Positions 5,712 to 57,813 of a stretch of 64,000 nucleotides of DNA are shown piece by piece. Where the stretch lies: positions 384,660 to 448,659 of the forward strand of contig JAVXNE010000001.1 of assembly GCA_036645935.1 (NCBI GenBank), given 5' to 3'. The position numbers were made by a program, and so were the translations under genes. Source of the DNA: Oscillospiraceae bacterium (GTDB lineage Bacteria > Bacillota > Clostridia > Oscillospirales > Ruminococcaceae). The first letter of the stretch is position 1. The number at the start of each line of letters is the position of its first letter. The notes beneath the pieces were generated by a model that was given only the letters and a program-made list of their open reading frames with translations, was not told the DNA's origin and ran no database searches.

Positions 5712-6371
5712 TTAATTGCATTCATTCACCGTGTCCAATCTGCAAATAACAAGAAATCTTTCTGGGGCGGGGCCGCCATATACGAATGGGTGGCAGGTGA
5801 CAAGTGTCAGATAGGGCGTCTCAAATCTCTGTGTCATCTCCGGAGCCTCAGGCAGACAGACCTGCGTTTTCTCAACGAGATATACATATTCGTATCCCCC
5901 GCTTTTAAGCGTAACCCTGTTGCCGACCTGTATGTCCTTCAACCATTTAAAAACCGTATCCCTGTGCCCAAATATCACACAATTTCCCGATTCTCCGGGC
6001 TGTGCGGTTTCCGAGATGTGCGCGACACCCATCCACAGATGCTCGCTTGTCAGCTCGTCATAAACAGCAAACCGGTGTGCTTTGGGAGTGTGAACTGTTA
6101 AAATTGCATAACCGGAATAGCCCGTCGCCTCTTCGTCATCATGCGCATCTTCCTGCAAAACTTCTTTGCGGCTCTCGCTTGCATCGTGCGGCTGTATCTC
6201 ACGCATCGACATCGATAATTCCGTCGCACACAACCCCTCGCTTATTGCGCGCTCGGAACGATAAACCCTCAGCGCACCAATCACTGTCATGGCGGCGGCA
6301 ATTAAAGTCATGATTACAAATAAAACGATAACTGTTTTTTCTTTTGGCCCTGGAAATTTCAGTTTTTTCAT
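5712..6371 (-). CDS. Sortase-family transpeptidase with an N-terminal membrane anchor
   Basis: N-terminal hydrophobic segment; LTLVTCHPF matches the sortase TLxTC catalytic-cysteine motif; HRDTVF histidine region; GAGGAA SD upstream of the ATG at 6371. Confidence 0.75.
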   Translation of the reverse strand: MKKLKFPGPKEKTVIVLFVIMTLIAAAMTVIGALRVYRSERAISEGLCATELSMSMREIQPHDASESRKEVLQEDAHDDEEATGYSGYAILTVHTPKAHRFAVYDELTSEHLWMGVAHISETAQPGESGNCVIFGHRDTVFKWLKDIQVGNRVTLKSGGYEYVYLVEKTQVCLPEAPEMTQRFETPYLTLVTCHPFVYGGPAPERFLVICRLDTVNECN

Positions 6372-6612
6372 CGATTCCTCGTTTTAAAAGCATTGTCTTG
6401 CGGCTCCGTTCGTCCGTTGGTCATGAATCGGGCTTTGAGCTTGCCGCAGTCGTCCATATATTAGAAATATTCACACATTCGTGACAATATGTATTCTGTG
6501 CACTGTTCACAGCTTCAATTTGGTAATTGGATCACTTATCGAGTCGGCGCATTTGAGTATACTATATCTGTCAGCCAATACGAATTATGCTATTCAAAAA
6601 GAGGGGATTTTC

Positions 6613-7695
6613 ATGAGACGCCTGACACTTGCCGCCACAGCGTTTTTTCTTGCGGCAGCACTCGTATCATGTGGCAATGCTGAAATCAACAACAATCAGG
6701 ACAGCTGTGTAAATCAAAGGGGATATAATATGGCACGGGAAAATTCCGAAATATACATCGCAGGCGGATGCTTTTGGGGAACAGAGCATTTTTTCAATCA
6801 GATTGACGGGGTTATCGAAACCGAGGTCGGCTATGCCAACGGCAGCACCGATAACCCGACCTACCGCAAGGTGTGCTGCGGGGACTCGGGATTCGCTGAA
6901 ACCGTCAGGGTGGTATACGACAAAAATATAGCGCCGCTTGAATTTCTTCTCGGTTTATATTACAAAACCATCGATCCCTCAAGCATCGACCGTCAGGGCA
7001 ACGATGCCGGAACACAATATCGAACCGGCATCTACTACACCGACGAATCCAATCTTGAAATCATTGGGCAATCACTTGAAAATCTTCACGCCGCAACAGG
7101 ACAGCAAGTTGCGATAGAGGTTCAACCACTTGCGAATTTTTACCCCGCAGAGGATTATCATCAGGATTATCTGGACAAGAACCCGGGCGGTTATTGTCAC
7201 ATTGACTCGTATCTTTTCAAAGTTGCAAGAGATGCAAAATACCACGTCCCGACATTTTCAAGACCGGACAACGCTGAACTCCACAAGAAACTGACGCCCG
7301 AACAATACGCCGTGACGCAAAACGGCGCCACCGAGCGACCATTTTCCAACTGCTACTGGAATACCTTTGAAGATGGGATATATGTTGACATAACGACGGG
7401 ACAGCCGCTGTTTGTCTCGACCGACAAATTCGATTCGGGCTGCGGCTGGCCGAGCTTTTCAAAACCAATCGACAGTTCTGTCATTTCGGAAACTACCGAC
7501 AGCAGTTGCGGCATGGTGCGAACCGAGGTGAGAAGTGAAACTGGCGACGCGCATCTCGGGCACGTCTTTGATGACGGCCCGCAGCAAAACGGCGGACTGC
7601 GCTACTGCATCAACAGCGCGTCGCTGCGCTTTGTTCCAAAAAGCGAGATGTCGCGTGAGGGCTATGGCGATTGGCTCTACCTGTTCGAGCGGTGA
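6613..7695 (+). CDS. msrAB: Peptide methionine sulfoxide reductase MsrA-MsrB fusion lipoprotein
   Basis: Signal peptide with lipobox (LVSCG); MsrA GCFWG motif; MsrB GCGWPSF and RYCINSA motifs; AGAGGGGA SD before the ATG at 6613. The ORF track start at 6481 is an upstream in-frame extension. Confidence 0.85.
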
Positions 7696-7979
7696 TGTCT
7701 GTTTCGGGCTGATACAGCTCTTGTTTGGAACAAGCGGGTCTATTGGGAATATTCACAATCTCCGGCTATCGAATGGGCTTTTCCAATCGGCGGATACTCG
7801 GTCGATTTTGCGGAAAGCGACTGCGTTCGCCATGCCGTTTTACCGATTTTATCTGCTTTTTCGTTACATCAAGCACAAAATTTCCAATCAAAAAGACTGC
7901 CTCGCAAAAAATGCGCGGCAGTCTTTTGGAAATCTATAAAGCGTTGCAAAAAAGGGTGTGTCCGCACAGCTTCTTGCAT

Positions 7980-8450
7980 CTATTTTTCTTTGATATCTCC
8001 GATATCTCTATCGTTAAAAATTTCCAGCGAGAATCCCAAATCGCGGTCGGTGTCGAAATATGCCCATTTAAGACCGGGAATTGCGCGGGCAGAGCTCCCG
8101 TTCATCGACATGTGATATCCTGCGTCTTCCAGCACATGCGCCGCTTCATCGTAACTCGGAACGCTGAATTTGATATGCTGCACTCCGCTTCCCTTTTCGC
8201 GCACAAAATCCTGCCATACGCCCTCGCCATCGACCGGCTCGATAAGCTCAATTTCAATGTTTGCAAAGTGATAAATTGCGATCTTTGTCGAGCAGAAAAC
8301 CGGCCGTCCGTGGTAATATCGCGTCGAATTTGAAGAATTTAGAAATTCATCCGGCTGTGCTCCGAAAACACGCTCCATCGCCTTCATCCCGAGGTCGAGA
8401 TTGCTGACAGCTATGCCTATCTGGGATATTTCAGTAAACCTGTTTGCCAT
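7980..8450 (-). CDS. VOC-family protein (glyoxalase / methylmalonyl-CoA epimerase-like)
   Basis: About 155 aa with a glyoxalase-fold pattern. The internal start MANRF is preceded by a GGAGAAAGG SD. It is the last gene of the long minus-strand operon. Confidence 0.65.
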   Translation of the reverse strand: MANRFTEISQIGIAVSNLDLGMKAMERVFGAQPDEFLNSSNSTRYYHGRPVFCSTKIAIYHFANIEIELIEPVDGEGVWQDFVREKGSGVQHIKFSVPSYDEAAHVLEDAGYHMSMNGSSARAIPGLKWAYFDTDRDLGFSLEIFNDRDIGDIKEK

Positions 8451-8466
8451 AGAAGTCCTTTCTCCG

Positions 8467-9489
8467 CTACCTCTGGACACGACCGGAGCCGTCTCCACCC
8501 ATCAGCCGTTTGACATCGTCTACCGTGGCGAGGTTAAAATCGAACTCCATCGTCTGTTTAAGACAGGAGGCCGCAACTGCAAATTCAATCGCTTTCTGCG
8601 CGTCCATTTTGCTGATGAGCGCATAGATAAGTCCCGCGCCGAAACTGTCTCCGCCGCCCACGCGATCGACCATATGAATATCATAAGATTTGGAGTAATG
8701 CGCCTTGCCTGCAGTGTAGTACATGCCGGCCCACGCGTTGTCCGACGCGGAGCGGCTCGTGCGCAACGTGAAGGCAACCCCGTCGCAGCCGTATTTCTCC
8801 TGTATGAGGCGAGCTGTTTCGGCATAAGCTTCGGGGTCAAGTTTCCCGCTTTGCACATCGGTGCGCGGGGGCTTTATGCCGAGTGTCTTATCGGCGTCCT
8901 CCTCGTTGCCTATGATGACATCGCAGTATGACACGAGCGCCGACATAACGCGCTGGGCATTTTCGGGCGACCACAGATTTTTGCGATAGTTAAGATCACA
9001 GCTTATGCGAACACCCGCTGCTTTTGCCGCCTTGCAAGCCTCTTCGCAGATTGCGGGCATTCCGTCGCTTAGCGCGGCGGTGATTCCGGTAAAATGAAAC
9101 CACTCGGCGTTTTTGAATATCGTCTTCCAATCGTAATCCGAGCCGGAGGACATCGAGATCGATGAGTATTTGCGGTCGTAAATAACTTTGGACGGGCGCT
9201 GCGAGGCACCGCGCTCGAGGTAGTATGTGCCCATGCGATCCCCGCCGAACACCACTTCGCCCACACCCACTCCGAATTTCTTAAGCGTGGAGAGCGCCAC
9301 GCGAGAGATGTCGTTGTCCGGCAGCTTAGTGACGAAAGATGTGTCGAGTCCGAAGTTGCTCAAAGACACGCAGATGTTGGCCTCCGCGCCGGTATAATTT
9401 ATGTCAAAATTGTCCGCCTGGATAAATTTGAGATATCCTCGGGGCGCCATGCGCAGCATTATTTCGCCGAATGTGACTACTTTGCCCAT
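8467..9489 (-). CDS. kdgK: 2-dehydro-3-deoxygluconokinase (PfkB-family sugar kinase)
   Basis: MGKVVTFGEIMLR N-terminus; PfkB motifs (GGGDSF...G); length 340 aa. Confidence 0.85.
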   Translation of the reverse strand: MGKVVTFGEIMLRMAPRGYLKFIQADNFDINYTGAEANICVSLSNFGLDTSFVTKLPDNDISRVALSTLKKFGVGVGEVVFGGDRMGTYYLERGASQRPSKVIYDRKYSSISMSSGSDYDWKTIFKNAEWFHFTGITAALSDGMPAICEEACKAAKAAGVRISCDLNYRKNLWSPENAQRVMSALVSYCDVIIGNEEDADKTLGIKPPRTDVQSGKLDPEAYAETARLIQEKYGCDGVAFTLRTSRSASDNAWAGMYYTAGKAHYSKSYDIHMVDRVGGGDSFGAGLIYALISKMDAQKAIEFAVAASCLKQTMEFDFNLATVDDVKRLMGGDGSGRVQR

Positions 9490-9490
9490 C

Positions 9491-10156
9491 TTATCTTCCC
9501 TCGTTGAACGCGCTTACTATGTCGCGGAACGTCTTTGCGCGCTCGGTAAACTCACTATAGTTTCCGCTCTCGAGCACCTTGCGGTCTGTAAGTCTTCCGC
9601 TAATGCCCGCACCTATATACCCGCCATTTAGGAAATCTTTTAAGTTCTCCTCGTTTACGCCCGCCGTTGCGAGCAGCTTCACGTGGCTTATAGGTCCGCG
9701 TATATTTTTTACATAAGACAGTCCGAGGTCGATCGCGGGAAACACCTTCACAATGTCCGCGCCGCATTTGTGTGCGGCGAGAATCTCGGATGGGGTCATG
9801 GCGCCGGGAATCGACACCAGGCCGTGTTCCAGTGTGCGCGCGATAACGTCGGGGTCTGTGTTTGGCGAAATTATGTATTGCGCACCGGCATTGAACGCCG
9901 CATCCGCCTGCGCGGGAGTGAGCACTGTGCCCGCTCCTATCAGCGAATCCGACCCGAAGCGCTTGTTGAGACGCGCTATCGCGTCCGCTGTATGCACAAG
10001 ACAATCGGGATCTGATTGATCGAAGGTCACCTCAACCATGCGAAGGCCTCCCTCGTGCAGTGACTCAAACAACTTTTCGAGCTGCTCGCCGTAAATACGA
10101 CGAACTATCACAATGATTCGCTCACGCTCAATTTGAGAGATTATTGTCTGTTTCAT
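9491..10156 (-). CDS. eda: 2-dehydro-3-deoxyphosphogluconate (KDPG) aldolase
   Basis: 221 aa; family-typical IVIVRR...GAGTVL...KVFPA motifs; lies immediately upstream of kdgK. Confidence 0.85.
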   Translation of the reverse strand: MKQTIISQIERERIIVIVRRIYGEQLEKLFESLHEGGLRMVEVTFDQSDPDCLVHTADAIARLNKRFGSDSLIGAGTVLTPAQADAAFNAGAQYIISPNTDPDVIARTLEHGLVSIPGAMTPSEILAAHKCGADIVKVFPAIDLGLSYVKNIRGPISHVKLLATAGVNEENLKDFLNGGYIGAGISGRLTDRKVLESGNYSEFTERAKTFRDIVSAFNEGR

Positions 10157-10172
10157 TGGACTCTCCTCAAAA

Positions 10173-11150
10173 TTATTCTGCAGTTGCTGTGGGTATAATT
10201 ACACCCTTAATATAGCCATCCGGCTTGTTAACAAGATCCTCAAATGCTTGTCCTATCTCTGCAAGCTCGTAGCGATGAGTGATTATATCTTCCATGCGAA
10301 TTACTCCGCGCTCGAGCAGCCTAAGGCCGCGTCTCATATCCTCAATCTGATCCTCGCTGTATTTTGCGTGAGCCACGACAATCTCTGCGCTGCGCGAAAC
10401 CATCTCCCGGAAATCGAAATCCTTGCACGGGCGCTTGTGCGAACTCATGAGCACCACTCGCCCTCGGCCGGTTGTGCGCAGCAATTTCACACATTCACCG
10501 AGTATCTCCGGTATTCCCGTTCCCTCGATGACAAAGTCCGCCATATGGGCTGCGGTTGCCTCGGAAACAACTGTGGCAACGTCATCGCGCAGCGGATTTG
10601 CAGTGTGCGTCGCACCGTATTTTTGGGCGAGCGCGAGCTTGCGATCGTCGGTATCCACACACACGAGAGCGCCCAGCGAGCCCCCCGCTAGTATCTGCGT
10701 GCTCCAAAGGCCCATCGGCCCACATCCGTATATCACGCCGCAGTCTCCCGCCTTCGCGTTCGTCGCCCGCGTTACGGTTATAACGCATTTGAGCGGCTCT
10801 CCCAGCGCGTGCTCGAGCGGCATTGCGGGATCAATTTTTACGGCTCGCTCATAGTCGACGACGGCGTAGTCCGCAAATCCTATGTAGACGGGCATCGCGA
10901 CAACATGATCTCCAACCGAGAAGCCCTTGACCTCCTCGCCCATGGCAGCGACCGTGCCCGCCCATTCGTGCCCAAGCGGCTGAGGACAGCTTCCGACAAT
11001 TCCGTGATAGTGATTAATCTCCCAGTTGCACAGCCCGCACACAGCCACTTTAACGAGCAGCTCGCGCGGCGCTGGCTTTACGTCATCTTTAATAAGCTCA
11101 AATCTTCCCGGCTCAGCCAATATGGCCCGTCTTGTAATCAATGCATACAC
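10173..11150 (-). CDS. Zinc-dependent alcohol/polyol dehydrogenase (MDR family)
   Basis: CGLCNWEINHYHG zinc-binding signature and a GxGxxG Rossmann segment (GCGPMG). Confidence 0.8.
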   Translation of the reverse strand: MYALITRRAILAEPGRFELIKDDVKPAPRELLVKVAVCGLCNWEINHYHGIVGSCPQPLGHEWAGTVAAMGEEVKGFSVGDHVVAMPVYIGFADYAVVDYERAVKIDPAMPLEHALGEPLKCVITVTRATNAKAGDCGVIYGCGPMGLWSTQILAGGSLGALVCVDTDDRKLALAQKYGATHTANPLRDDVATVVSEATAAHMADFVIEGTGIPEILGECVKLLRTTGRGRVVLMSSHKRPCKDFDFREMVSRSAEIVVAHAKYSEDQIEDMRRGLRLLERGVIRMEDIITHRYELAEIGQAFEDLVNKPDGYIKGVIIPTATAE

Positions 11151-13759: not shown

Positions 13760-14658
13760 TCTTTTCCGCCCTCCTTGTCGCCATTCTTCGAGCGCAGTTT
13801 TTTGAAAATCGACGAGAAAAATTTCCCTATTTTTTTGAATATGTCGGTTATCTCAAGCTCTCCAAACAGACCTTTAGGCATGAAGTTGATGATCAAGAGC
13901 ACCGTGACGCAGTAGATAACGATGCGCAAATTATCGGTGAAGCGCAGAAACTCCGGCAATATATTCAGCAGCACGCCGGCTGTTATCGTTCCCGACAGGC
14001 TGTTAACTCCGCCAATGAACACCATGATTATCCATTCGATTGACTTCTTGGTGGCGAAAGCGTTCGGCTCAACATAGGTTGTGAGATATGCCCACAGCGC
14101 GCCTCCGAAGGCGGTGATGCCCCCACAGAACACAAATGCAAGCGTCTTGACCTTTTGCACGTTGATGCCCATTGCGGCGGCTGATATCTCATCGCTCTTG
14201 ATCGCGAGGCACTGTCTGCCAAATTTAGAGCGCTTGAAATTCAGCACAATAAATATGACTGCGGCAAGCGAAATCGTTGCGATGAATACCGTCGTCTTGC
14301 GCGGTATACCGTTGAGACCCAAAGAGCCGCCCGTAAACTTTGTGGCCGTGTTGAGCAGCGCGACGATTGCCTCGCCAAATGCCAGCGTCACAAGCGCTAT
14401 ATAGTCTCGCCTTAGCTTGATGACCGGCATGGCAACGCCCCACGCAACGAGCATTCCTATAATTATGGCGACGATAATATTCACTATCATCGGCGTTCCG
14501 ACACGCAGGCACATGAGGCCGGCTGCATAAGCGCCCACCGACATGAACGAAGCCTGTCCCATCGAGAATATTCCCGTGAGGCTGATGAGCACGAACATCG
14601 AAAGAACGCCGATCAACGAAACGCACATCGAAACATAAATTGAGGAGTAATATGACAT
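13756..14658 (-). CDS. livM: Branched-chain amino-acid-type ABC permease, LivM type
   Basis: Polytopic membrane protein. The ATG at 14658 is preceded by an AAGGGGGGAG SD; the track start at 14721 is an upstream extension. Confidence 0.75.
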   Translation of the reverse strand: MSYYSSIYVSMCVSLIGVLSMFVLISLTGIFSMGQASFMSVGAYAAGLMCLRVGTPMIVNIIVAIIIGMLVAWGVAMPVIKLRRDYIALVTLAFGEAIVALLNTATKFTGGSLGLNGIPRKTTVFIATISLAAVIFIVLNFKRSKFGRQCLAIKSDEISAAAMGINVQKVKTLAFVFCGGITAFGGALWAYLTTYVEPNAFATKKSIEWIIMVFIGGVNSLSGTITAGVLLNILPEFLRFTDNLRIVIYCVTVLLIINFMPKGLFGELEITDIFKKIGKFFSSIFKKLRSKNGDKEGGKE

Positions 14659-39986: not shown

Positions 39987-41093
39987 ATGAAAAAGGTTAT
40001 TATCAATGAGAACCAGAAGGGATTTCTGTTCCGGAACGGTCAACTCGTCAAGCTTCTGAATGCAGGAAAATACCATGTGTTTGGGGACAGCGAAATTGAG
40101 CTTGTCTCTCTAAAAGAGCCCTTATCCTCCACAAAATGCGAGCTGGAGACCCTGCTCGCCAACAATGAAATCGCAAAGCACACCTTGGTCTGCGACGTTG
40201 AAGATCAGCAGCTGGCGCTCCATATCGTAAACGGCAATTTTGAAGGAGTGCTGCGCCGTGGCAAATATGCTTTCTGGTCCGTCACTGACCACCACGAATA
40301 TCATCCGGTGGATATTTCAACGCCCGAAGTCGCCCCAGATGTTCCTCTGTACATATTTGCAAAACTGCCCGCCACGCTTTATACGAAGATAGAAGTGGCG
40401 CAGTATCAGAAGGCGCGGCTGTACTTTGATCAGAAGCTTGTTTGCATTCTGGATGCCGGTGTGTATTACTTCTGGAAAAATAATATCCGGATCGATGTCG
40501 GGCTTGTGGATACGAGGCTTACTCAGATGGAGATCACCGGGCAGGAGATCATGACTCAAGACAAGGTCAGCCTTCGCATCAATTTTGTGTGCAATTATCG
40601 CATAACGGATTATGTGAAGATCCTTACCGAGATCGACGACTATTCCGCGCAGATGCACGTTGCAGCACAGCTCGCCCTGCGAGACTTTGTGGGAAAGCAA
40701 AAGCTGGACGACATTCTTGCAAATAAGGATGAGATGTCAAGGTATGTCTTTGACCGGCTCAAAGCAAGAGAAAGTGAGTTCTTTGTGGAAATCACCGACG
40801 CGGGCGTGAAAGATATCATACTGCCCGGTGAGATTCGCGACATCATGAACACAGTGCTGGTGGCAGAAAAGCGCGCACAGGCCAATGTTATTACCCGCCG
40901 AGAGGAGGTCGCTTCCACCCGCTCTTTGCTTAATACCGCCAAGCTGATGGAGGAGAACCAAACTCTTTACAAGCTCAAGGAACTCGAGCATATCGAACAC
41001 ATCTGCGAGAATGTGGGAAACATAAACCTGAACGGAAACGGAGATGTTCTGTCCCAGCTCATGAGCCTGATACATGCGGGTTCACCCTTCTGA
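39987..41093 (+). CDS. SPFH/Band-7 (stomatin/flotillin-like) domain protein with an N-terminal domain of about 180 aa of unknown function
   Basis: SPFH core (QEIMTQDKVSLRINFVCNYRITD ... PGEIRDIMNTVLVAEKRAQANVITRREEVASTRSL); strong GAGGAGG SD. Confidence 0.75.
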   Translation: MKKVIINENQKGFLFRNGQLVKLLNAGKYHVFGDSEIELVSLKEPLSSTKCELETLLANNEIAKHTLVCDVEDQQLALHIVNGNFEGVLRRGKYAFWSVTDHHEYHPVDISTPEVAPDVPLYIFAKLPATLYTKIEVAQYQKARLYFDQKLVCILDAGVYYFWKNNIRIDVGLVDTRLTQMEITGQEIMTQDKVSLRINFVCNYRITDYVKILTEIDDYSAQMHVAAQLALRDFVGKQKLDDILANKDEMSRYVFDRLKARESEFFVEITDAGVKDIILPGEIRDIMNTVLVAEKRAQANVITRREEVASTRSLLNTAKLMEENQTLYKLKELEHIEHICENVGNINLNGNGDVLSQLMSLIHAGSPF

Positions 41094-43231: not shown

Positions 43232-43807
43232 TTAATAGTATCGCAAACATCCCACAACACGGCCGAGCACCTGAACGTCATCCGCAATTATAGGTTCAAA
43301 ACTGGGATTCTCCGCATGAAGCTCAACGCGTCCGTTTTTTCGGTAAAGACGCTTCACCGTAGCCTCGTCTCCAATGAGCGCAACGGCAATCTCACCGTCC
43401 TCAACGGTCGGTGTCTGCTTTGCGACTATAATATCTCCGTCTAGGATTCCCGCGTTTATCATACTCTCGCCGCGAACGTGCAACGCAAAGAGATCGCTGT
43501 TGTCCCTGCGGGGACTGTCGAACATTATGTAATCCTCGATATACTGCTGTGCGAGAATGGGCACGCCGGCAGCAACGGTTCCGAGTAAAGGAACAGAAAC
43601 CGCAGACCCGCTCTTGGTGAGCGATATGTTGCGACGTTTGCCCGACGCTATTGAAATCCGTCCCTCATCCTCCAGCTCGTGCAAAAGTTTGTGAACCTGC
43701 GATGTCGATTTAATCGCAAGGGCATCGCACAGCTCTCGCACCGACGGTGGAGATTCAAAGCTGTTCTCGACAAGATAGCGAAAGAGCTTTTCCTTCTTAC
43801 CGCTCAT
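43232..43807 (-). CDS. lexA: LexA repressor (S24 peptidase, SOS regulator)
   Basis: N-terminal LexA DNA-binding domain (PPSVRELCDALAIKSTSQVHKLLHELEDEGRI); S24 Ser-Lys dyad (GESMINAGI ... TVKRL). The ATG at 43807 follows a GGAGGAT SD; the track start at 43843 is an extension. Confidence 0.85.
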   Translation of the reverse strand: MSGKKEKLFRYLVENSFESPPSVRELCDALAIKSTSQVHKLLHELEDEGRISIASGKRRNISLTKSGSAVSVPLLGTVAAGVPILAQQYIEDYIMFDSPRRDNSDLFALHVRGESMINAGILDGDIIVAKQTPTVEDGEIAVALIGDEATVKRLYRKNGRVELHAENPSFEPIIADDVQVLGRVVGCLRYY

Positions 43808-43837
43808 ATAATATCCTCCGCCCTTAGCGTTGGGTTT

Positions 43838-43849
43838 GAACATTTGTTT
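43838..43849. promoter_or_regulatory. Putative LexA (Cheo-type) box GAACATTTGTTT in the lexA promoter
   Basis: GAAC-N4-GTTT, as for clostridial and Bacillus LexA operators. It lies about 30 bp upstream of the lexA start and downstream of a TGgTATTAT extended -10 on the minus strand. Confidence 0.45.
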
Positions 43850-44088: not shown

Positions 44089-45108
44089 TTATTCTATTTT
44101 GGCGTCGAGCTCCTTTTCCGAAAGATATTGTTCCTTTGTCGTTCTAATGCAGAACTCGCTCTCCTCTCCCGCAAAGAAGACACGCGCCAAATGCTTTTTT
44201 TCCTCGAGCACAAAATGAAAACCGTCGTAAAAAATCGGGTCATTTGCGGCATATTCGTTATTGAACTCCATATCGTAAACTGTGGCGCGCGACTTGAGGC
44301 GATCCTTATATATATTGATATAAAAATCAATTTCCATCGGGTACACGACAAAATCCCAGATTGCACGGTTGCTGTTCGGCATGATAAACACGAGCTCAAT
44401 GCCGTTCGTGTCACAATAATCTATTATCTCGTCCAGTCGGGACAGGTATTCGAGAGCACCCTTATATCCATCGCACTGGCTGTAGATTATCGCGGCATAG
44501 TTCTGCAAATCAATGCGGTAGCCATCGGCAGAATAGTCGGAGGGCGGCCGCACATCTTGCGTGAGCGACGAGGGGTCGTCCACAACCATTCGCAGCTTCT
44601 CGTTTCCGGTGATATTCGCCCATGCATTGGACAGCGCAACTTCAAGATTGCCTAGCATATCCAGCCACACGTCAAAGTCGAAGAAAAACTTTGTGGGCGA
44701 GAGAGCCTTTTCGCTGGCCGATTCAAAGCGACCCTCAGAATAGTGAATGTCACTGAGATTGTAGAAGTTAAGACCGATGACAACCTTTTTCAGTTCGGTG
44801 TGCTCACTCGCAAACCAAAACTGCTCAATGTTTTCGTTGAGCGTCGCGCCGCCATAGCACAACATCGTCCAGTGACCACCGCCGATCTCTTCGATATAAT
44901 CGGCATTGAAATTTGCCATGCGCGAATCCCCGAGAACGATGTTCTCGGGATGCTCACGCAGCAGCTCACGCAGCGAGCTGACCGAACGCGCATAATAGCG
45001 TGATTCGCCTTTAAGCCCCCAATAGTCGTATGGTTCAAACGCGACGAAGAGCGCGAATATCAGCGCAAAAGGGAATATGAATATCACAATCTTTTTAAAC
45101 AACTTCAT
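44089..45108 (-). CDS. DltD/AlgJ-like SGNH-fold acyltransferase partner protein, N-terminally membrane-anchored (copy 2)
   Basis: N-terminal TM; conserved blocks shared with the 48128-49105 paralogue (FEPYDY, LGDSRMANxN, FWF..EHTELKKVV, SRATVYDME, DGFH); adjacent to an MBOAT gene. Confidence 0.55.
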   Translation of the reverse strand: MKLFKKIVIFIFPFALIFALFVAFEPYDYWGLKGESRYYARSVSSLRELLREHPENIVLGDSRMANFNADYIEEIGGGHWTMLCYGGATLNENIEQFWFASEHTELKKVVIGLNFYNLSDIHYSEGRFESASEKALSPTKFFFDFDVWLDMLGNLEVALSNAWANITGNEKLRMVVDDPSSLTQDVRPPSDYSADGYRIDLQNYAAIIYSQCDGYKGALEYLSRLDEIIDYCDTNGIELVFIMPNSNRAIWDFVVYPMEIDFYINIYKDRLKSRATVYDMEFNNEYAANDPIFYDGFHFVLEEKKHLARVFFAGEESEFCIRTTKEQYLSEKELDAKIE

Positions 45109-45116
45109 TTTTTACC

Positions 45117-46601
45117 TCAAAATCCCTGGTATATGAGCGAGCTGCTCACGGTTCCCGTGACAGATATCATATAGAAGATAATCACGGCGGCACCCATCGT
45201 CCAGTAAAGTGCCCAGCGTGTTTTTTTGCCGAATGTTCCAAGCGGGTTAAAATCAGTCTGCCCCATACGTGTCGGGCGGCTGCTCAAAATATCGAAAATT
45301 ATCGTTAGAACAAGACCGAACACGATCCCGATAAAATAGAACCACATGTATCTGCTGTCGGTAAAAATCCCTTTGGCGGCATATTTTTGCAGCAGTGCGA
45401 CGGTGTCCGCAAAAGGACCGAATTTAAAGAGATTTGAGAATAGATATCCTGCATGTGCAAGGGATGGTGCGCGAAAGAACACCCAGCCGAGCGCGACGAG
45501 AATGTCGCTTATAACTATGCGTGCCACCCTCAACGCGCCGCGCGGCTTTGCAAATCTCTCTCCGAACGCATGCGTGAGCAGCTCGTCGCATATTCGCAAG
45601 ACTCCGTGCCACGCGCCCCAGACCAAAAATGTCACTCCAACGCCGTGCCACAGCCCGCTCACGAGAAACACGAGCAATATGTTGATTAGCTTGCGTGCAA
45701 ATCCCTTGCGGTTGCCCCCTAGCGGGATGTAGACATAGTCGCGAAGCCACGAGGTGAGCGACATATGCCAGCGCGACCAGAAATCAGTGATGCCGGCCGC
45801 GAGATACGGTGCTCTGAAATTCTCGCGCAGCTTGAACCCGAGCATTTCAGCCACCCCGATCGCCATGTCTGTGTATCCCGAAAAATCGCAGTATATCTGA
45901 ATCGCATATGCCGCAACGGCTACGAGCAGTGTCACTCCATCATACTGAGGAAGGTCACTGTAAACCCCGTTCACTATTGAAGCAAGTCCGTCTGCTATCA
46001 CAACTTTTTTAAACGCGCCCCACAGACACCGCTCAAGCCCGCTTACAGCGCGCGAATAACTGAAATCATGCTGCTCGCGAAACTGCGGTATAAGCTCGCC
46101 CGCGCGGTTTATCGGGCCGGATATTATCTGCGGGAAGAAGCTGACGAAGAGTGAGAACGTGACAAAATCCCGCTCGGGGCTCGCGTCACCACGATAGATA
46201 TCAATGAAATATCCGATCAGTTGCAGCGTGTAGAAGCTGATTCCGAGCGGCTGAACGAGCGAGAACCCATTCTCAGGCACCCCAATTCCGAGCGATGCCG
46301 CTACACCGCTCAGCAAATTAAAATATTTGAAGAAAAACAGCGCGCCCAGCAGCACAATTATCGAGAGCGTCAGTCGCCGTTTTTTTGATTTTTCCGTCAC
46401 CGCACCGCCCAGTTTGATCGCGGCAAAATATGCGAAAGCTGTCGTTCCGAGCACAAGCGCTCCGTAATACGGCAGCTTCCACATGTAAAACACATAGCTC
46501 GCTATGAGCAAAAATGGGTTGCGCAGCTTGCGCGGAAGCAGATAATATCCTGCAAGCACAAGGGTGAGAAACAGAATAAACAGCGGGGAGTTAAGAGACA
46601 T
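45117..46601 (-). CDS. MBOAT-family membrane-bound O-acyltransferase (AlgI/DltB/PatA-like), copy 2
   Basis: WSRWHMSLTSWLRDYVYIPLGGNRKG with the MBOAT catalytic His; polytopic. The ATG at 46601 follows a GAGGTGA SD. The central roughly 353 codons are near-identical to the upstream paralogue. Confidence 0.8.
   Translation of the reverse strand: MSLNSPLFILFLTLVLAGYYLLPRKLRNPFLLIASYVFYMWKLPYYGALVLGTTAFAYFAAIKLGGAVTEKSKKRRLTLSIIVLLGALFFFKYFNLLSGVAASLGIGVPENGFSLVQPLGISFYTLQLIGYFIDIYRGDASPERDFVTFSLFVSFFPQIISGPINRAGELIPQFREQHDFSYSRAVSGLERCLWGAFKKVVIADGLASIVNGVYSDLPQYDGVTLLVAVAAYAIQIYCDFSGYTDMAIGVAEMLGFKLRENFRAPYLAAGITDFWSRWHMSLTSWLRDYVYIPLGGNRKGFARKLINILLVFLVSGLWHGVGVTFLVWGAWHGVLRICDELLTHAFGERFAKPRGALRVARIVISDILVALGWVFFRAPSLAHAGYLFSNLFKFGPFADTVALLQKYAAKGIFTDSRYMWFYFIGIVFGLVLTIIFDILSSRPTRMGQTDFNPLGTFGKKTRWALYWTMGAAVIIFYMISVTGTVSSSLIYQGF
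45468..46527. repeat. Direct repeat copy A (1,060 bp), near-identical to 46984-48043
   Basis: Constant offset of 1,516 bp. Identical sub-ORFs appear in the track (45719-45916 versus 47235-47432; 45765-45980 versus 47281-47496). One mismatch was seen (cccGctcac versus cccActcac). Confidence 0.85.
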
Positions 46602-46626
46602 ATTCACCTCATGTTTCGTGAAAAAA

Positions 46627-48117
46627 TTAAAAATTGCCGTATATGAACGACGCGGACAGTGCTCCACGCGACGCGCTGATGATAAAGAAGCACATTACCG
46701 CGAGTGCGAGCGAAATACACAGCGTCCATTTTGTGATTTTGCCAAAATCATACAGCGGATTATAACCATCGCTATCACCCTCGCGCGTTCGTCGCGCGAG
46801 CTTTGCATCAAATATCGCACAAATCACAAGGCCCATCAAAATCAATCCAAAGAAAAGAAGATAGAACACCGTTGCGTTCGCGACATTTTGAGACGCAAGG
46901 TAGGTTATCTGTTCAAGCGCGCCCGAAAAGGAAACGGAATTTAGCATGTTTTTAAAGACATAGAGCGCATCAGGCAGCGAATTTGCGCGAAAGAACACCC
47001 AGCCGAGCGCGACGAGAATGTCGCTTATAACTATGCGTGCCACCCTCAACGCGCCGCGCGGCTTTGCAAATCTCTCTCCGAACGCATGCGTGAGCAGCTC
47101 GTCGCATATTCGCAAGACTCCGTGCCACGCGCCCCAGACCAAAAATGTCACTCCAACGCCGTGCCACAGCCCACTCACGAGAAACACGAGCAATATGTTG
47201 ATTAGCTTGCGTGCAAATCCCTTGCGGTTGCCCCCTAGCGGGATGTAGACATAGTCGCGAAGCCACGAGGTGAGCGACATATGCCAGCGCGACCAGAAAT
47301 CAGTGATGCCGGCCGCGAGATACGGTGCTCTGAAATTCTCGCGCAGCTTGAACCCGAGCATTTCAGCCACCCCGATCGCCATGTCTGTGTATCCCGAAAA
47401 ATCGCAGTATATCTGAATCGCATATGCCGCAACGGCTACGAGCAGTGTCACTCCATCATACTGAGGAAGGTCACTGTAAACCCCGTTCACTATTGAAGCA
47501 AGTCCGTCTGCTATCACAACTTTTTTAAACGCGCCCCACAGACACCGCTCAAGCCCGCTTACAGCGCGCGAATAACTGAAATCATGCTGCTCGCGAAACT
47601 GCGGTATAAGCTCGCCCGCGCGGTTTATCGGGCCGGATATTATCTGCGGGAAGAAGCTGACGAAGAGTGAGAACGTGACAAAATCCCGCTCGGGGCTCGC
47701 GTCACCACGATAGATATCAATGAAATATCCGATCAGTTGCAGCGTGTAGAAGCTGATTCCGAGCGGCTGAACGAGCGAGAACCCATTCTCAGGCACCCCA
47801 ATTCCGAGCGATGCCGCTACACCGCTCAGCAAATTAAAATATTTGAAGAAAAACAGCGCGCCCAGCAGCACAATTATCGAGAGCGTCAGTCGCCGTTTTT
47901 TTGATTTTTCCGTCACCGCACCGCCCAGTTTGATCGCGGCAAAATATGCGAAAGCTGTCGTTCCGAGCACAAGCGCTCCGTAATACGGCAGCTTCCACAT
48001 GTAAAACACATAGCTCGCTATGAGCAAAAATGGGTTGCGCAGCCTTTGGGGTAACACAAAATACACCGTTGCGGCAACTGTCAGGAATATCAAAAACGCA
48101 GGGGTTGAAAATGACAT
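46627..48117 (-). CDS. MBOAT-family membrane-bound O-acyltransferase, copy 1
   Basis: Same MBOAT motifs; unique N-terminus (about 30 aa) and C-terminus (about 100 aa) flank the shared core. Confidence 0.8.
   Translation of the reverse strand: MSFSTPAFLIFLTVAATVYFVLPQRLRNPFLLIASYVFYMWKLPYYGALVLGTTAFAYFAAIKLGGAVTEKSKKRRLTLSIIVLLGALFFFKYFNLLSGVAASLGIGVPENGFSLVQPLGISFYTLQLIGYFIDIYRGDASPERDFVTFSLFVSFFPQIISGPINRAGELIPQFREQHDFSYSRAVSGLERCLWGAFKKVVIADGLASIVNGVYSDLPQYDGVTLLVAVAAYAIQIYCDFSGYTDMAIGVAEMLGFKLRENFRAPYLAAGITDFWSRWHMSLTSWLRDYVYIPLGGNRKGFARKLINILLVFLVSGLWHGVGVTFLVWGAWHGVLRICDELLTHAFGERFAKPRGALRVARIVISDILVALGWVFFRANSLPDALYVFKNMLNSVSFSGALEQITYLASQNVANATVFYLLFFGLILMGLVICAIFDAKLARRTREGDSDGYNPLYDFGKITKWTLCISLALAVMCFFIISASRGALSASFIYGNF
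46984..48043. repeat. Direct repeat copy B (1,060 bp)
   Basis: See copy A. Confidence 0.85.
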
Positions 48118-48127
48118 AGGCTCGGTT

Positions 48128-49105
48128 TCAATCCTTTACATATCTCGTTATCACGTCGCTGTCCTCCCCTGCAAACACCGCGCGCATCACAATCTTTTTA
48201 GGTTCGGTGAACAGGTGAAAACCGTCGCGGAAATTGTTCTCATCACGGGTGAAGTCATTCAGATATTCCATGTCGTACACCGTCGCGCGCGATTTTAAAA
48301 AATTCAGCAACTGCACACGATATGGCTCAACGCCGCACGGCTCTGTGGCCATCTCAAATATCGATTCGTGCATGGGTGGTATCACAAACTGAAGCTCGAT
48401 ATGGTGTTCTTCGCAGTAATCGATAACCTTTGAAATCTGCTTATATGTTTCAGGAGCGATTGAATATCCCTGCACGCCGCCGTATATGAGAATCGCGTAA
48501 TCCTCAAGGTCCTGCCGATACTTTTCTCCGCGCTCGCTCGTGGGATTCGCGTCCACCACAAGCGCATTCGGATCCTCGGGGTATTCCAACCATTCGGGAC
48601 GACCAAACGCTGCTGCCGCAAGATTTTTGGTCTTGTATTTTATCGCATTGCCAGCCTCGAGCCAATTCCCGAACGACGTCAAAAAGCTGTACGTGCTTGT
48701 CGCCTGCCTCTCGACCACCGGTATACGCCCTGCAGTCTGATCTCCACGGCACATATAAAAACTCACGCCAAACACAACTTTCTTGAGCTCAGTGTGCTCA
48801 GTGCAAAACCAAAACAGCTCGAGCTGCTCTCCGAGCGTGGATCCTCCGAAGCCGACCATCTCGTATCTCTTTGCACTTATCTGCTCAATGTAATCGGTGT
48901 TGAGGTTTGCCATGCGCGAGTCGCCGAGAATGATTTTATCGGGCTTCTGTATGATAATTTTGCGCATAGCGGACAGCGGTTTTGAGAGATATGTGGCATC
49001 GCCGCGCACACAGAAATAATCATACGGCTCAAAAGCGAAAAAGACGAGCAGCACAAGTATAAAAGGCAACGAGAAAATCGCGAGATTTTTGATGAATTTC
49101 TTCAA
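48128..49105 (-). CDS. DltD/AlgJ-like SGNH-fold acyltransferase partner protein (copy 1)
   Basis: Paralogue of 44089-45108 at about 40% identity by eye, with an N-terminal TM anchor. Confidence 0.55.
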   Translation of the reverse strand: MKKFIKNLAIFSLPFILVLLVFFAFEPYDYFCVRGDATYLSKPLSAMRKIIIQKPDKIILGDSRMANLNTDYIEQISAKRYEMVGFGGSTLGEQLELFWFCTEHTELKKVVFGVSFYMCRGDQTAGRIPVVERQATSTYSFLTSFGNWLEAGNAIKYKTKNLAAAAFGRPEWLEYPEDPNALVVDANPTSERGEKYRQDLEDYAILIYGGVQGYSIAPETYKQISKVIDYCEEHHIELQFVIPPMHESIFEMATEPCGVEPYRVQLLNFLKSRATVYDMEYLNDFTRDENNFRDGFHLFTEPKKIVMRAVFAGEDSDVITRYVKD

Positions 49106-49205: not shown

Positions 49206-50945
49206 TTATGCAAACTGACTGTTATAAAGTGTGCGATACAGACCGTCATGTTGCATCAGCTGCTCATGAGTTCCGCTGTCCTCAATGCCCTCGTCCGTGA
49301 TGACAACTATCTCGTCTGAGCCCTGAACGGTTGACAGGCGATGGGCAACGACGATGGTCGTGCGACCCTCGCACAGCTCGTCCAGCTCGCGCTGCAGCTC
49401 AAACTCTGTCACGTTGTCGAGCGCGGAAGTTGCCTCGTCAAGGATGAGTACCTGTGGGTTTTTGAGGAATATACGCGCAATTGCAATGCGCTGCTTCTGC
49501 CCGCCCGACAGTCTGATTCCGCGCTCGCCTACCCATGTGTCGTAGCCGTCCGGCAGCGATTCGATAAAGCTGTCTATTTTGGCGCGCCGCGCGGCTTCTT
49601 CAATCTGCTCCCTGGTGGCATCCGCCCGCGCGTAGGCGATGTTGTCGGCTATCGTTCCGGTGAACAGAAAAACCTCCTGCTGCACGATTCCGACAAGTCT
49701 TCTGAGACTTGCGCGCGTTATCATTGAGAGATCTCGCCCACCAATCGTTATCTTTCCCGCCGATATGTCATAAAAGCGCGGTATGAGATGGCAGAGCGTC
49801 GTCTTGCCCGCACCCGAGGGACCAACCAGCGCAGTCTTTTTTCCGTTTTTCATAACGAGATTGACGTGGTTGAGCACGCGGGCGTCGCTGCCATATGTGA
49901 AGCTCACATCGTTGAAAACAATATCGCCATCCAGTTCCTCGGCGTCAACCGCAAGCAGACTTTCAGGCTCCGGCTGTGCGTCCATCACCTCGCAGAATCT
50001 CTTGAATCCGGTCTTGCCGTCCTCATACATTTCAACAAACTGCGTCAGTTTGCGAATTGGGTTGATGAACTGGCCTATATAGAGAAAATAAGCCGCAAAA
50101 TCGCCCATATCTATCTTGCCGTTAAAGTAGAAAAATCCTCCCGCAACGAGCACCACAAGGTACATGAGGTCGATGAAATAATACATCCATGAGTAGAACA
50201 CGGACATGGTTTTGTATGCGGCGTAGCGCGCCTCTTTGTAGTTGTCGATAGCGCGCGAGAACTTTTCGTTTTCCCCCTGCTCATTGTCGAATGCTTTGGC
50301 AACTCTGATTCCCGAAATGGAGTTGGACAGCTCCGCGTTAATATCGGAGGTCTTCTCTCTTGCGAGCGCAAAGCCGCGTTCCATGCGCGCTTGCATCTTC
50401 ACCATTATAAATATGAATATCGGCAAAAACGCGAATACTATAAGCGTGAGTGGGACGTTAACCGTGCACAGGACTGCAAAAGATCCCGCCATCATCATGA
50501 AAGACAGAAAAAAATACTCGGGTCCGTGATGGGCAAGCTCGGAGACGTCGTTTAAGTCGTTGACGATTCGGGACATGAGCGCGCCCGATTTGTTCTCGTC
50601 AAAATATGCAAACGGGAGCTTCTGCATGTGCGCGAAAACGTCGCCGCGCATGTCTCCCTGCATTCCGACTCCCAGCACATGCCCGTAATAGTTGACCACA
50701 TAATTAAGGCCGAGCTTCACAAGGTAGATGATGAACAGCACGCCGGCGTACACAAAAAGCAGCCTGAGCGCACGCGAGGGGACGACGTCATTGATGACCG
50801 TTCTCGTGATCATCGGATAGACGAGATCACACAGTGATATGATGAACGCGGCTATCATATCGATAACCATCAGTCCCTTGTATGGTTTATAATAGTGAAA
50901 AAATCGTTTTGTAAAGCTTGCGGGTTTCATAATTGCTCTTTTCAT
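49206..50945 (-). CDS. ABC exporter, fused permease-ATPase (MsbA/multidrug type)
   Basis: Six-TM N-terminal half; Walker A GPSGAGKTT; LSGGQKQRIAIAR signature; 579 aa. Confidence 0.85.
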   Translation of the reverse strand: MKRAIMKPASFTKRFFHYYKPYKGLMVIDMIAAFIISLCDLVYPMITRTVINDVVPSRALRLLFVYAGVLFIIYLVKLGLNYVVNYYGHVLGVGMQGDMRGDVFAHMQKLPFAYFDENKSGALMSRIVNDLNDVSELAHHGPEYFFLSFMMMAGSFAVLCTVNVPLTLIVFAFLPIFIFIMVKMQARMERGFALAREKTSDINAELSNSISGIRVAKAFDNEQGENEKFSRAIDNYKEARYAAYKTMSVFYSWMYYFIDLMYLVVLVAGGFFYFNGKIDMGDFAAYFLYIGQFINPIRKLTQFVEMYEDGKTGFKRFCEVMDAQPEPESLLAVDAEELDGDIVFNDVSFTYGSDARVLNHVNLVMKNGKKTALVGPSGAGKTTLCHLIPRFYDISAGKITIGGRDLSMITRASLRRLVGIVQQEVFLFTGTIADNIAYARADATREQIEEAARRAKIDSFIESLPDGYDTWVGERGIRLSGGQKQRIAIARIFLKNPQVLILDEATSALDNVTEFELQRELDELCEGRTTIVVAHRLSTVQGSDEIVVITDEGIEDSGTHEQLMQHDGLYRTLYNSQFA

Positions 50946-54125: not shown

Positions 54126-54835
54126 TCACAGTGTTATCGAATTCAGCAGTGCGCCCAGCCGGCCCGTCATCATCAGAATTCCCACGACAATGAGAAGTGC
54201 ACCGCAAACAACATTTACGCTTCGGTAGTTTTTCTTAATGAACGCAAACGTACCTTTCAGCCGATCTATCAGCAGCGCGCTCAGAACAAACGGGATACCC
54301 AATCCCAAAGAATAGACAAGCAGCATCAGCATCCCTCGCGCCGCCGTGCCCTGCTGTGAAGCGAGCAGCAATGCCGAGCCGAGAAAGGCGCCGACACATG
54401 GAGTCCAGCCAACCGCAAACACCGCTCCGAAAACCGCGGCCGAACCGAAACCCAACGGCCGAACCGAGCTGTTCAGACGAACTGAAGCGTTGAGAAATCC
54501 AATTTTGAGCACTCCAATGTAATTGAGTCCAAATACAATCACTATCGCCCCGCTCACAATGTTGACCGCTGTCTCGTGCTCGCGCAGCACCGTGCCCACC
54601 GTTCCCGCAAATGCACCAAGCAAAACAAACACCGCCGAAAAACCCAACACGAAACCCAGCGAATTCACGAGCGCGCGGGATGAGTTTTTGGGCTTGCCAT
54701 TCTGCGCCGAATCCGCCTCGCTCTGCGCGGTCTGCTCTCCGCCCGCAAAATAAGCGATGTAGATAGGAAGCATCGGGAGCAGGCAGGGCGAGATGAACGT
54801 TATTATTCCCTCTAAAAACGAGACCAGATACTGCA
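54126..54835 (-). CDS. ccdA: Cytochrome-c-biogenesis/thiol-disulfide transporter CcdA (DsbD-core family)
   Basis: FISPCLLPMLP and GWTPCVG conserved cysteine motifs; six TM segments. The ATG at 54835 follows an AAGGGGAG SD. Confidence 0.8.
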
Positions 54836-55329
54836 TATAACTCCCCTTAGTTTTTGCTGTCAAAACTGACCTGTCAATGCTCTTTATTATGATCCCTGCT
54901 GCCATATGCATACAGTCGAAGTTGAGTTTTAATATTCGTCTTTCCTGAAAAGCGCGTTCTGCACAGAGTTTGCGGCACAATCCATATTCACGCCGCCACG
55001 CAGCGACCGGTAAATCTCTGTTCGCGCTCCGCGCAAGCTGCGGAGCACACCCATCACGACTGTGTGTCGCTATCCGCGCGAGGCAGATTCTGCTTTTTAT
55101 GCTATGCTGCTTTTTAAAAATCCACAAACAAAGACAGACAGCAGCATCTGCCACCGAACGTGATTTGTCTCTCGCAATCATTCCCGCTCGAGATGTTCCA
55201 ATTATATTGATAACGGCACCCCCATGTCAACGCAAGGCGCTGCTCAATGTGACCGAATCACATTGAGTCGAGTTCAAAAGACCGAACTTTAAAAAACGCA
55301 CAATTTTATTTTGCCACAAGAGATTGTTC

Positions 55330-56270
55330 GCGGTCGATAGCCGGATTGCAGTCATCGGTGCGGGCTTTCTCTCTCTCGTGGGATTTCTCTCTCTCGTGGG
55401 CTTTCTCTCTCCCTCGCGGGATTTCTCTCTCTCGTGGGATTTCTCTCTCCCTCGCGGGATTTCTCTCTCCCTCGCGGGCTTTTTCGCTCTCTCGCGGGAT
55501 TTCTCTCTCCCTCTCGGGCTTTCTCTCTCGTGTGATTTCTCTCTCCCTCTCGGGCTTTCTCTCTCGTGTGATTTCTCTCTCCCTCTCGGGCTTTCTCTCT
55601 CGTGTGATTTCTCTCTCTCGTGGGATTTCTCTCACGTGGGGCTTCTCTCTCGTGGGCTTTCTCTCTCCCTCTCGGGCTTTCGCTCCCTCGCGGGACTTCT
55701 CTAGCGTGGGACTTCTCTCCCTCTCGGTTTTTCTCTCGCGTAGGCTTTCGCTCCCTCGCGGGTTTTCTCTCTCGCGTGGGTTTTCTCTCTCGCGTGGGTT
55801 TTCTCTCTCTCGTGGGCTTTTTCGCTCTCTCGTGGGCTTTTTCGCTCTCTCGTGGGCTTTTTCGCTCTCTCGTGGGCTTTTTCGCTCTCTCGTGGGCTTT
55901 CTCTCCCTCGTGGGACTTCTCTCTCGTGGGACTTCTCTCTCGTGGGACTTCTCTCTCGTGGGACTTCTCTCACGTAAGGCTTCTCTCTCACGCAGGTTTT
56001 CTCTCTCTCGTGGGCTTTCGCTCCCTCGCGGGACTTCTCTCTCGTGGGACTTCTCTCACGTGGGGCTTCTCTCTCACGCGGGATTTCTCTCTCTCGTGGG
56101 ATTTCTCTCACGTGGGGCTTCTCTCTCCCTCTCGGGCTTTCTCTCTCGCGGGATTTCTCTCTCCCTCTCGGGCTTTCTCTCTCGCGGGATTTCTCTCTCC
56201 CTCTCGGGCTTTCTCTCACGTGGGGCTTCTCTCGCGCGGGACTTCTCTCGCGCGGACAATTTTCTGACGC
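55330..56270. repeat. About 940-bp degenerate tandem minisatellite, pyrimidine-rich on the plus strand (units TCTCTC-TCGYGGG-MTTTC of 15-21 nt; higher-order periods 36 and 20 nt)
   Basis: Read directly from the sequence. Almost no A on the plus strand, so five of six frames are open, giving ER-rich (REREIPRERKPE) or SL-rich low-complexity ORFs. Confidence 0.85.
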
Positions 56271-56857: not shown

Positions 56858-57667
56858 CTATGCTTTGAGCATGGCATAGTCGCCGATCTCCTCAAATCCG
56901 ATTTTTTTGTATATTGATGCGGCGACAGGGTTGTCATAAAAAATGCTGACAAATCCACGGCCGCGCGCGAGGCTGTCACGGCAAACCGCCGACACTGCCG
57001 CGCTCGCAAGCCCTCTTCCTCGCATGTCCTTGCGTGTTGCAACTCCGACTACCATTCCTCCTATGCTGCATCTCGCCGCTATTGCCGCCGTTGAGATCAG
57101 CTCTCCGCTCTCGTCAAACACCCCGAAGCAGCTGTCTGAACCACTGGCAAGCTCGGCGCGCTTTTCCTCAATGCGCTGTTCGAGTTTTCCGATATAGTCG
57201 TCGCGAAACTCGTCGATCTCACAAAAAAACGAAATTATCTTTTCGGCTTCCTGCGCTCTCATCGGCCTTATCAGCGCGCTCCCATAATTCAGCTCAAACC
57301 CATGTGCTTCACGGCAGCGCGCAAGACGCGTCATGCGCAACTGAGTGTGTTTGACATAAGGCGCAATCGCCGCCACCGTATCCGACTTGCCGCTTATCAT
57401 CTCAAAGCCGTGAGCAGACAAAAAATCCGCAAGCGCGCGTGAATCAAAATCCCCGTCGCGCGAATATATCACCCAGCTATTGTAAAACCGCAGCGCGATA
57501 CAGGTTATCGCGCCGCAATCACGCAAAGCAAAAACCTCCACATGCTCGGAATCAAAGCCGCAGTTTTCTGTGTCTCCGATTATAAACATGTTGTATTCCG
57601 GTTCGGCAAAAAGATATTCAAGCAGCGCCTCTCTGTTTTGTTCCCGGAGCTTTTCAATGTTTGTCAT
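56858..57667 (-). CDS. GNAT-family acetyltransferase (C-terminal GNAT fold)
   Basis: C-terminal QRGRGLA...FYDNPVAASIYKKIGFEE acetyltransferase motif. The start is assigned to MTNIEK because an upstream small ORF occupies 57676-57813. Confidence 0.6.
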   Translation of the reverse strand: MTNIEKLREQNREALLEYLFAEPEYNMFIIGDTENCGFDSEHVEVFALRDCGAITCIALRFYNSWVIYSRDGDFDSRALADFLSAHGFEMISGKSDTVAAIAPYVKHTQLRMTRLARCREAHGFELNYGSALIRPMRAQEAEKIISFFCEIDEFRDDYIGKLEQRIEEKRAELASGSDSCFGVFDESGELISTAAIAARCSIGGMVVGVATRKDMRGRGLASAAVSAVCRDSLARGRGFVSIFYDNPVAASIYKKIGFEEIGDYAMLKA

Positions 57668-57675
57668 GAGGTTAA

Positions 57676-57813
57676 CCCTTATTTGCCACCCTTTATTATC
57701 CTGGAAAATAGCCATACTGCCGCAAATACCAGTGCTGCGGCGAGAACGTAACTCGCTATCTGCTTCACCAGCGGTGGAAGACTGATGAGCGCTATGTAAT
57801 ATGTGGATGCCAT
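57676..57813 (-). CDS. Possible small hydrophobic protein (46 aa)
   Basis: AGGAGTG SD 5 nt before the ATG; MASTYYIALISLPPLVKQIASYVLAAALVFAAVWLFSRIIKGGK suggests a single TM helix. Confidence 0.3.

Follow-up and report, generated by a model that had tools for sequence, protein, structure and literature searches.

How can two neighbouring genes be virtually identical over a long internal stretch and yet be saturated with differences at both of their ends? The question is raised by a pair of tandem MBOAT (membrane-bound O-acyltransferase) genes in a stretch of 64,000 nucleotides, in the following referred to as the window, from contig JAVXNE010000001.1 of an uncultured gut Oscillospiraceae bacterium (GCA_036645935.1), whose locus has been read from assemblies. 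Each MBOAT gene adjoins a gene for a membrane-anchored SGNH-fold protein, so that the four minus-strand genes follow one another as SGNH_A, MBOAT_up, MBOAT_dn, SGNH_B. The upstream enzyme (MBOAT_up, 46627..48117) comprises 496 amino acids and terminates in FIYGNF, and the downstream enzyme (MBOAT_dn, 45117..46601) comprises 494 amino acids and terminates in LIYQGF; the start of the latter has been placed at the ATG behind a GAGGTG ribosome-binding site, in agreement with the N-terminus of its homologues in the family. We propose that non-allelic gene conversion between the adjacent MBOAT paralogues has homogenised codons 26-378, a reading to which we assign a probability of roughly 85%, with MBOAT_up as the putative donor and MBOAT_dn as the putative recipient copy.

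In an offset scan of the window, positions 45468-46527 and 46984-48043 (minus strand, offset 1516) have been found to match at 1059 of 1060 positions, and the two proteins are identical at residues 26-378, as a preceding inspection of the letters (the sequence-only reading), which had counted about 353 identical codons with one mismatch over 1,060 bp at an offset of 1,516, had correctly stated. The termini do differ as it had claimed, the lengths being 25 residues at the N-terminus and ∼117 at the C-terminus instead of 30 and 100. Both repeat borders are abrupt, with the identity collapsing within a few nucleotides. In a codon-aligned comparison of the window pair, segment by segment, the tract (codons 26-378) has shown 99.8-100% nucleotide identity and 99-100% identity at third positions, compared with 55% and 40% for the N-terminal end and 49% and 37% for the C-terminal end; at third positions (37-40% identity) the gene ends are thus saturated with differences. 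The sole mismatch of the repeat (45657 G/47173 A on the plus strand) is synonymous and lies at gene position 945, where the upstream copy carries T in the window and likewise in a sister assembly (L002, GCA_036644195.1). As this variant is common to both assemblies, it is an inherited paralogue-specific difference and not a sequencing error.

The SGNH-MBOAT-MBOAT-SGNH cassette has also been found in other species (L004-6, L087, L088, L089, L091, L095, and L099), often flanked by the corresponding ABC exporter upstream and lexA downstream. In most of these cassettes the two MBOAT cores are only 64-75% identical in nucleotide sequence, and the unconverted pairs share 47-58% of third positions across the tract codons; chance therefore cannot explain the identity of the tract in the window. 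For a phylogeny by segments, neighbour-joining trees with bootstrap have been built for the ends, coreA, the island (a short section of the tract described below), and coreB, accompanied by identity matrices. The ends of MBOAT_up cluster with L4_up and L87_up (100% bootstrap) and those of MBOAT_dn with L4_dn (92%), whereas the core segments of the two window copies cluster together. Paralogues group inside the tract and orthologues outside of it, which is the signature of gene conversion. The comparison of core and termini that the sequence-only reading had proposed has strongly supported gene conversion, one of the two origins it had offered, in line with the contrast in third-position identity (99-100% against 37-40%). 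By these sequence relationships, the gene ends are orthologous across species and the duplication is ancient. A search of genome contigs with the MBOAT protein has served as the negative background: among the matches listed, relatives reach no more than 47% identity and are mostly single MBOATs without such a partner. The same search has yielded L060, apparently from one project with the window, in which the alternative order MBOAT-SGNH-MBOAT-SGNH (6001-11072) occurs and a homogenised tract is absent.

The other origin offered, a recent tandem segmental duplication of the MBOAT gene with subsequent fast divergence of the ends, would readily produce 1,060 near-identical base pairs in tandem. 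The tract borders are, however, knife-sharp, the ends stand at a saturated 37-40% third-position identity, and the gene order has been kept in species with diverged cores. Since the upstream and downstream ends as well as both partner genes, themselves saturated, group with their own orthologues in other species, in which the cores are diverged, a recent segmental duplication is rejected by the segment phylogeny, and we consider it very improbable. Equally little credence can be given to the notion that one MBOAT gene has been misassembled into two copies. A 1-kb exact repeat is indeed difficult to resolve with short reads, and the sources consist entirely of metagenome-assembled genomes (MAGs), but both distinct N- and C-termini and both partners belong to intact open reading frames with orthologues elsewhere, and two tandem MBOATs are present in at least five assemblies of the species as well as in a minimum of seven further lineages. 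Moreover, a single contig joins the C-terminus of the upstream gene to the N-terminus of the downstream gene through the unique spacer between the repeat copies (46528..46983, minus strand, 456 bp), which consists of the last 118 codons of MBOAT_up, 25 bp of intergenic sequence with the ribosome-binding site, and the first 25 codons of MBOAT_dn. A catalytic core held constant by extreme purifying selection, without recombination, would agree with the fact that conservation in the family is highest there; this account is refuted by the synonymous sites, which are identical too (one difference in 353 codons, against 47-58% third-position identity in unconverted pairs), and is the least credible of these explanations.

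Conversion at this cassette has not been a single incident. In a different species (L089, GCA_964622315.1), whose core segments are ∼45-65% identical to the MBOATs of the window, the MBOAT pair contains an 863-bp tract (3075-3937 against 4623-5485) that is 98.8% identical and includes a perfect run of 813 bp (gene nucleotides 55-867); the tract covers codons ∼19-289 and stops ahead of the catalytic His region. Two of ∼9 double cassettes are thus converted, with differing borders, and in both of them the C-terminal module and the partner genes are untouched. Judged by its separate borders and host species, the tract in L089 represents an independent event, and conversion at the cassette is recurrent. 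Regarding base composition, the GC content at third codon positions has been found to be 63% in the converted tract of the window and 51% in the gene ends, a 12-point excess compared with 0-7 points in other pairs, and in L089, the second converted lineage, the excess amounts to 6-7 points only. This might hint at a GC-biased conversion, for which two converted lineages are too few to judge.

The direction and the stages of the exchange can be approached through the sister MAGs, which apparently stem from one study (same accession series). L001 (GCA_036651515.1), which also holds an exact match to the MBOAT_dn protein, agrees with the window to 99.99%; between its own two copies the identity is 100%, the single-nucleotide polymorphism (SNP) at position 945 being absent. 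Across 13.4 kb, L002 and L003 (GCA_036658765.1) deviate from the window solely in an ancestral island of 147 bp within the downstream copy (gene positions 537-683), which is only 53% identical in nucleotide sequence to the upstream copy and splits their repeat into blocks of 462 and 451 bp. A third MAG (587,770-bp contig) encodes the downstream protein of the L002 type, the match having been made at the protein level. Translated into window coordinates (all minus strand), the copy in MBOAT_up (46984..48043, codons 26-378) comprises the block R1 (47582-48043), the island segment (47435-47581), and the block R2 (46984-47434), and the copy in MBOAT_dn (45468..46527) comprises R1 (46066-46527), the island segment (45919..46065; codons 180-228, with a long helix at 182-215), and R2 (45468-45918), the downstream island being of the upstream type in the window and L001. 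The repeat length of 1,060 bp given by the sequence-only reading accordingly holds for the window, yet it is insecure, as three otherwise identical assemblies carry the diverged island downstream. In the segment trees, the downstream island of L002 falls with the downstream lineage of other species (84% bootstrap), and island and coreB of the window fall with the upstream lineage (77% and 85%), from which it follows that the downstream gene has been overwritten by upstream sequence. For island and coreB the tree topology thus sets an up-to-down direction. The simplest history has two steps, in which the 462- and 451-bp blocks would have become identical before the sampled strains diverged from their common ancestor, and the 147-bp island between them would have been overwritten later, solely in the haplotype of the window and L001.

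Which enzymes are concerned is indicated by profiles and structures. The PF03062 profile has matched the two MBOAT genes with 111 and 109 bits (gathering cutoff 27; E 4e-31 for MBOAT_up and 9e-32 for MBOAT_dn), and the core is homologous to DltB (PDB 6bug, E 5e-24), although the DltB equivalog TIGR04091 has remained below its cutoff (154 bits vs 375). W318, H319, and G320 are invariant among 55 homologues, all three lying inside the converted tract and aligning with the DltB core, and Y493 of MBOAT_up is likewise invariant in the homologue alignment. The C-terminal F-I-Y-x-x-F pattern occurs in at least 114 of 120 homologues, and the Tyr at position -4 in 117 of 120. In a recent study of PatA/PatB, this hexapeptide has been described as a fused acyl-shuttle motif; in its model, the MBOAT auto-acylates its C-terminal Tyr, from which the acyl group is handed on to the catalytic Ser of the SGNH partner, and a Tyr motif fused to the MBOAT marks systems that use acyl-CoA outside of the Dlt pathway (PMC12148441, 2025). 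The 496-aa protein of MBOAT_up has returned no record in an exact look-up; a sister MAG annotates a shorter start of 488 aa, and the cluster holds a 496-aa member.

The partners, Partner A (48128..49105, minus strand, 325 aa, the presumed cognate of the upstream MBOAT) and Partner B (44089..45108, minus strand, 339 aa, the presumed cognate of the downstream MBOAT), possess an SGNH fold, which has been recognised by fold comparison alone: sequence searches of both in Pfam, NCBIfam, and PDB have given no match, and the sequence profile of DltD (PF04914) is not matched. The description as DltD-like partners of about 40% identity is therefore right with respect to the identity, measured as 39% (longest common exact nucleotide run 15), whereas the likeness to DltD is confined to the level of the fold. 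Orthologues across species share 51-59% (A) and 48-77% (B), compared with 36-42% between A and B. The family comprises 69 proteins, whose named members all belong to Oscillospiraceae or Hydrogenoanaerobacterium, and DUF1574 is present in a few of the proteins; Gly61, Ser63, Gly87, Asp294, and His297 are invariant. Each MBOAT is hence neighboured by a membrane-anchored SGNH-fold protein with a Ser/Asp/His triad, as in a pair of the PatA/PatB type. Taken together, these signatures identify the locus as two anciently duplicated MBOAT-SGNH O-acyltransferase pairs, and the acyl donor would presumably be acetyl-CoA and the target an extracytoplasmic polymer.

In mechanistic terms, homologous recombination between the tandem MBOAT genes would copy upstream sequence into the downstream gene, presumably in a RecA-dependent manner. 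The AlphaFold (AF2) model of MBOAT_up (mean predicted local distance difference test, pLDDT, 89.8) assigns residues 6-21 to helix 1; the tract corresponds to the predicted helices 2-15 and includes the invariant His319, and the predicted last four helices (381-390, 397-411, 416-445, and 460-483) together with the Tyr tail lie outside. In the PatAB complex model, the membrane helix of the SGNH partner touches α1 and the last helix, α17, of the MBOAT (PMC12148441). The unconverted parts are the equivalents of α1 and the last helices and are thus expected to recognise the cognate partner. The notion that variable ends confer partner specificity on a constant core, raised by the sequence-only reading, accordingly fits the helix map and the published α1/α17 contact and stays an expectation drawn from them. 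The tract would probably halt at its borders because the flanks are too diverged for strand exchange, and probably also because converting the ends would spoil the fit of each MBOAT with its own SGNH partner. The ends are the most diverged parts in unconverted pairs as well (26-48% amino-acid identity), and the borders may be purely mechanical, strand exchange simply stopping in diverged ends. A stronger proposal, which we regard as unlikely, is that selection and not divergence alone has set the borders, so that helices 2-15 would be freely exchangeable and the choice of SGNH partner or polymer would lie with helix 1, with the final four helices and their Tyr tail, and possibly with the helix 182-215; the island polymorphism would then be a real recurrent switch in what the downstream enzyme serves. 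If this were true, the locus would represent a recombination-driven variation of cell-surface acylation in a gut commensal. As it stands, it is a case of ordinary concerted evolution, which adds a further instance to a familiar process but no novel type of system. The locus nevertheless offers a natural domain-swap experiment, in which one and the same catalytic body occurs in two enzymes whose partners differ, and this suggests that partner or substrate specificity resides in the C-terminal helices together with helix 1, as the PatA/PatB acyl-shuttle model predicts.

Several observations weigh against gene conversion in the form outlined above. The sources are short-read MAG assemblies of one study, probably made with SPAdes, as the NODE_-style names in L060, apparently of the same project, indicate. 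The window equals L002 over 13.4 kb bar the island, and this difference could result from a bubble collapse in the assembler. The segment trees assign a direction for island and coreB only and none for coreA. The tract in L089 starts at about codon 19, that is, already within helix 1 or close to where it ends (residues 6-21 of the model made for the window), which means that this helix is not strictly spared, and a selection on the borders is inseparable from a plain failure of recombination in diverged sequence.

Among these points, the assembly deserves the closest weighing, since a partial artefact would be conceivable in which the true genome is of the island type and the assembler has fused the equally long island paths, leaving a false 1,060-bp repeat in the window and L001; conversion would still explain both blocks. 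The window matches L002 and L003 outside of the island, and at least four of ∼7 MAGs of the species show either the downstream-type island or a branching of the graph at the island borders. Assemblies indeed falter at this locus: L002 contains a gap of 10 N and a duplicated 77-mer exactly at the start of R1 (4472-4635), the contig of L003 begins (1-55) 55 nt ahead of the end of R2, another MAG holds a 1,369-bp contig that consists of R2, spacer, and R1 (451 + 456 + 462) and terminates at the island borders, and contigs of two more MAGs start within the downstream gene, one of them ∼55 nt ahead of the R2 end. L001 has also lost the SNP at position 945, as popping of a bubble would bring about. 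The window, however, retains this SNP, phased as in L002, and a collapse of the 147-nt bubble should have erased the one-base bubble too. Furthermore, L002 has kept its island, the 77-nt overlap pointing to a larger k, and since long perfect flanking homology favours RecA-mediated conversion, the ∼450 bp of it on either side should lead to genuine and frequent conversion of the island. We therefore hold the full 1,060-bp identity, which would then stem from a very recent up-to-down conversion, to be probably real, and a collapse of the island part by the assembler to be a serious but lesser prospect; the identical blocks of 462 and 451 bp, and hence gene conversion, stand in either case.

The suspicion that the repeat is a likely site of assembly collapse has been well founded, as sister MAG assemblies break or show N-gaps exactly at the repeat borders. 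The locus is a documented trap for short-read MAG assembly, in which sister assemblies of one strain break, gap, or possibly collapse, and comparisons of gene content or strains across it are not trustworthy without long reads. Deletion or amplification variants, which had been predicted from the size of the repeat, are absent among the ∼7 MAGs in the cluster (no chimeric single MBOAT) and remain a reasonable expectation only. An exact 40-mer of the spacer has found 0 matches in a metagenome contig collection, so that this collection supplies no independent contigs for the species. In L001, a further scaffold gap of 10 N (14427-14436) is unrelated to the repeat; the window has 46 nt there (40130-40175).

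Compared with PatA/PatB (PMC12148441), the present pairs share the conserved His and the C-terminal F-I-Y-x-x-F acyl-shuttle hexapeptide on the MBOAT and the adjacent membrane-anchored SGNH-fold partner with its Ser/Asp/His triad, and the MBOAT parts left unconverted, α1 and the last helices, are those that contact the partner anchor in the published model. The differences are a partner from a small family of 69 proteins without a sequence match in Pfam, NCBIfam, and PDB and the presence of two pairs in mirrored gene order. Two MBOAT-SGNH pairs, PatA1/PatB1 and PatA2/PatB2, acetylate the secondary cell wall polysaccharide of Bacillus according to the works cited in PMC12148441 (refs 64-65), and to the extent that this citing text describes them they resemble the present case in being two paralogous MBOAT-SGNH pairs of a Gram-positive organism. 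The Dlt system is more remote. Besides the TIGR04091 score below cutoff (154 vs 375), the MBOAT itself carries the fused Tyr motif here, whereas Dlt has the separate DltX microprotein (PMC12148441), and the immediate neighbours, the only ones considered, are an ABC exporter and LexA without dlt genes.

The process itself has ample precedent, as bacterial paralogues such as tufA/tufB in Salmonella evolve in concert by gene conversion, which has also been described for repeat families of M. tuberculosis (PMC12046097). The common features are a non-reciprocal exchange of the RecA type, sharp recurrent tracts, and the confounding of short-read assembly. In the present case, by contrast, the tract takes in only the catalytic body of a membrane enzyme and leaves out the modules that putatively contact the partner, and haplotypes at two conversion stages are found within one species. 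To our knowledge, a homogenised core is not among the features reported for the Bacillus PatA pairs, and a literature search has returned no account of gene conversion in MBOAT genes.

Regarding the surroundings of the cassette, an ABC exporter with fused membrane and ATPase domains (49206..50945, minus strand; Pfam ABC_membrane and ABC_tran) lies directly upstream and lexA (43232-43843) downstream. The exporter occupies the equal position in L001, L002, L004, and L089, and from this conserved placement it may be a candidate member of the cassette operon. Both lexA and the exporter stay beside the cassette even in the distant relatives L004 and L089. Polymer-synthesis genes have not been found immediately adjacent to the cassette in the window. 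Apart from the cassette, the window harbours a degenerate tandem array at 55362-56249, in which an 18-nt unit, GGGATTTCTCTCTCTCGT, recurs ∼47 times, with periods of 16, 18, and 20 and 72-75% matches. This array is flanked by a DsbD-like gene (54126-55181, minus strand) on one side and by an open reading frame at 56858-57715 on the other, and the open reading frames that run across it are of low complexity on both strands.

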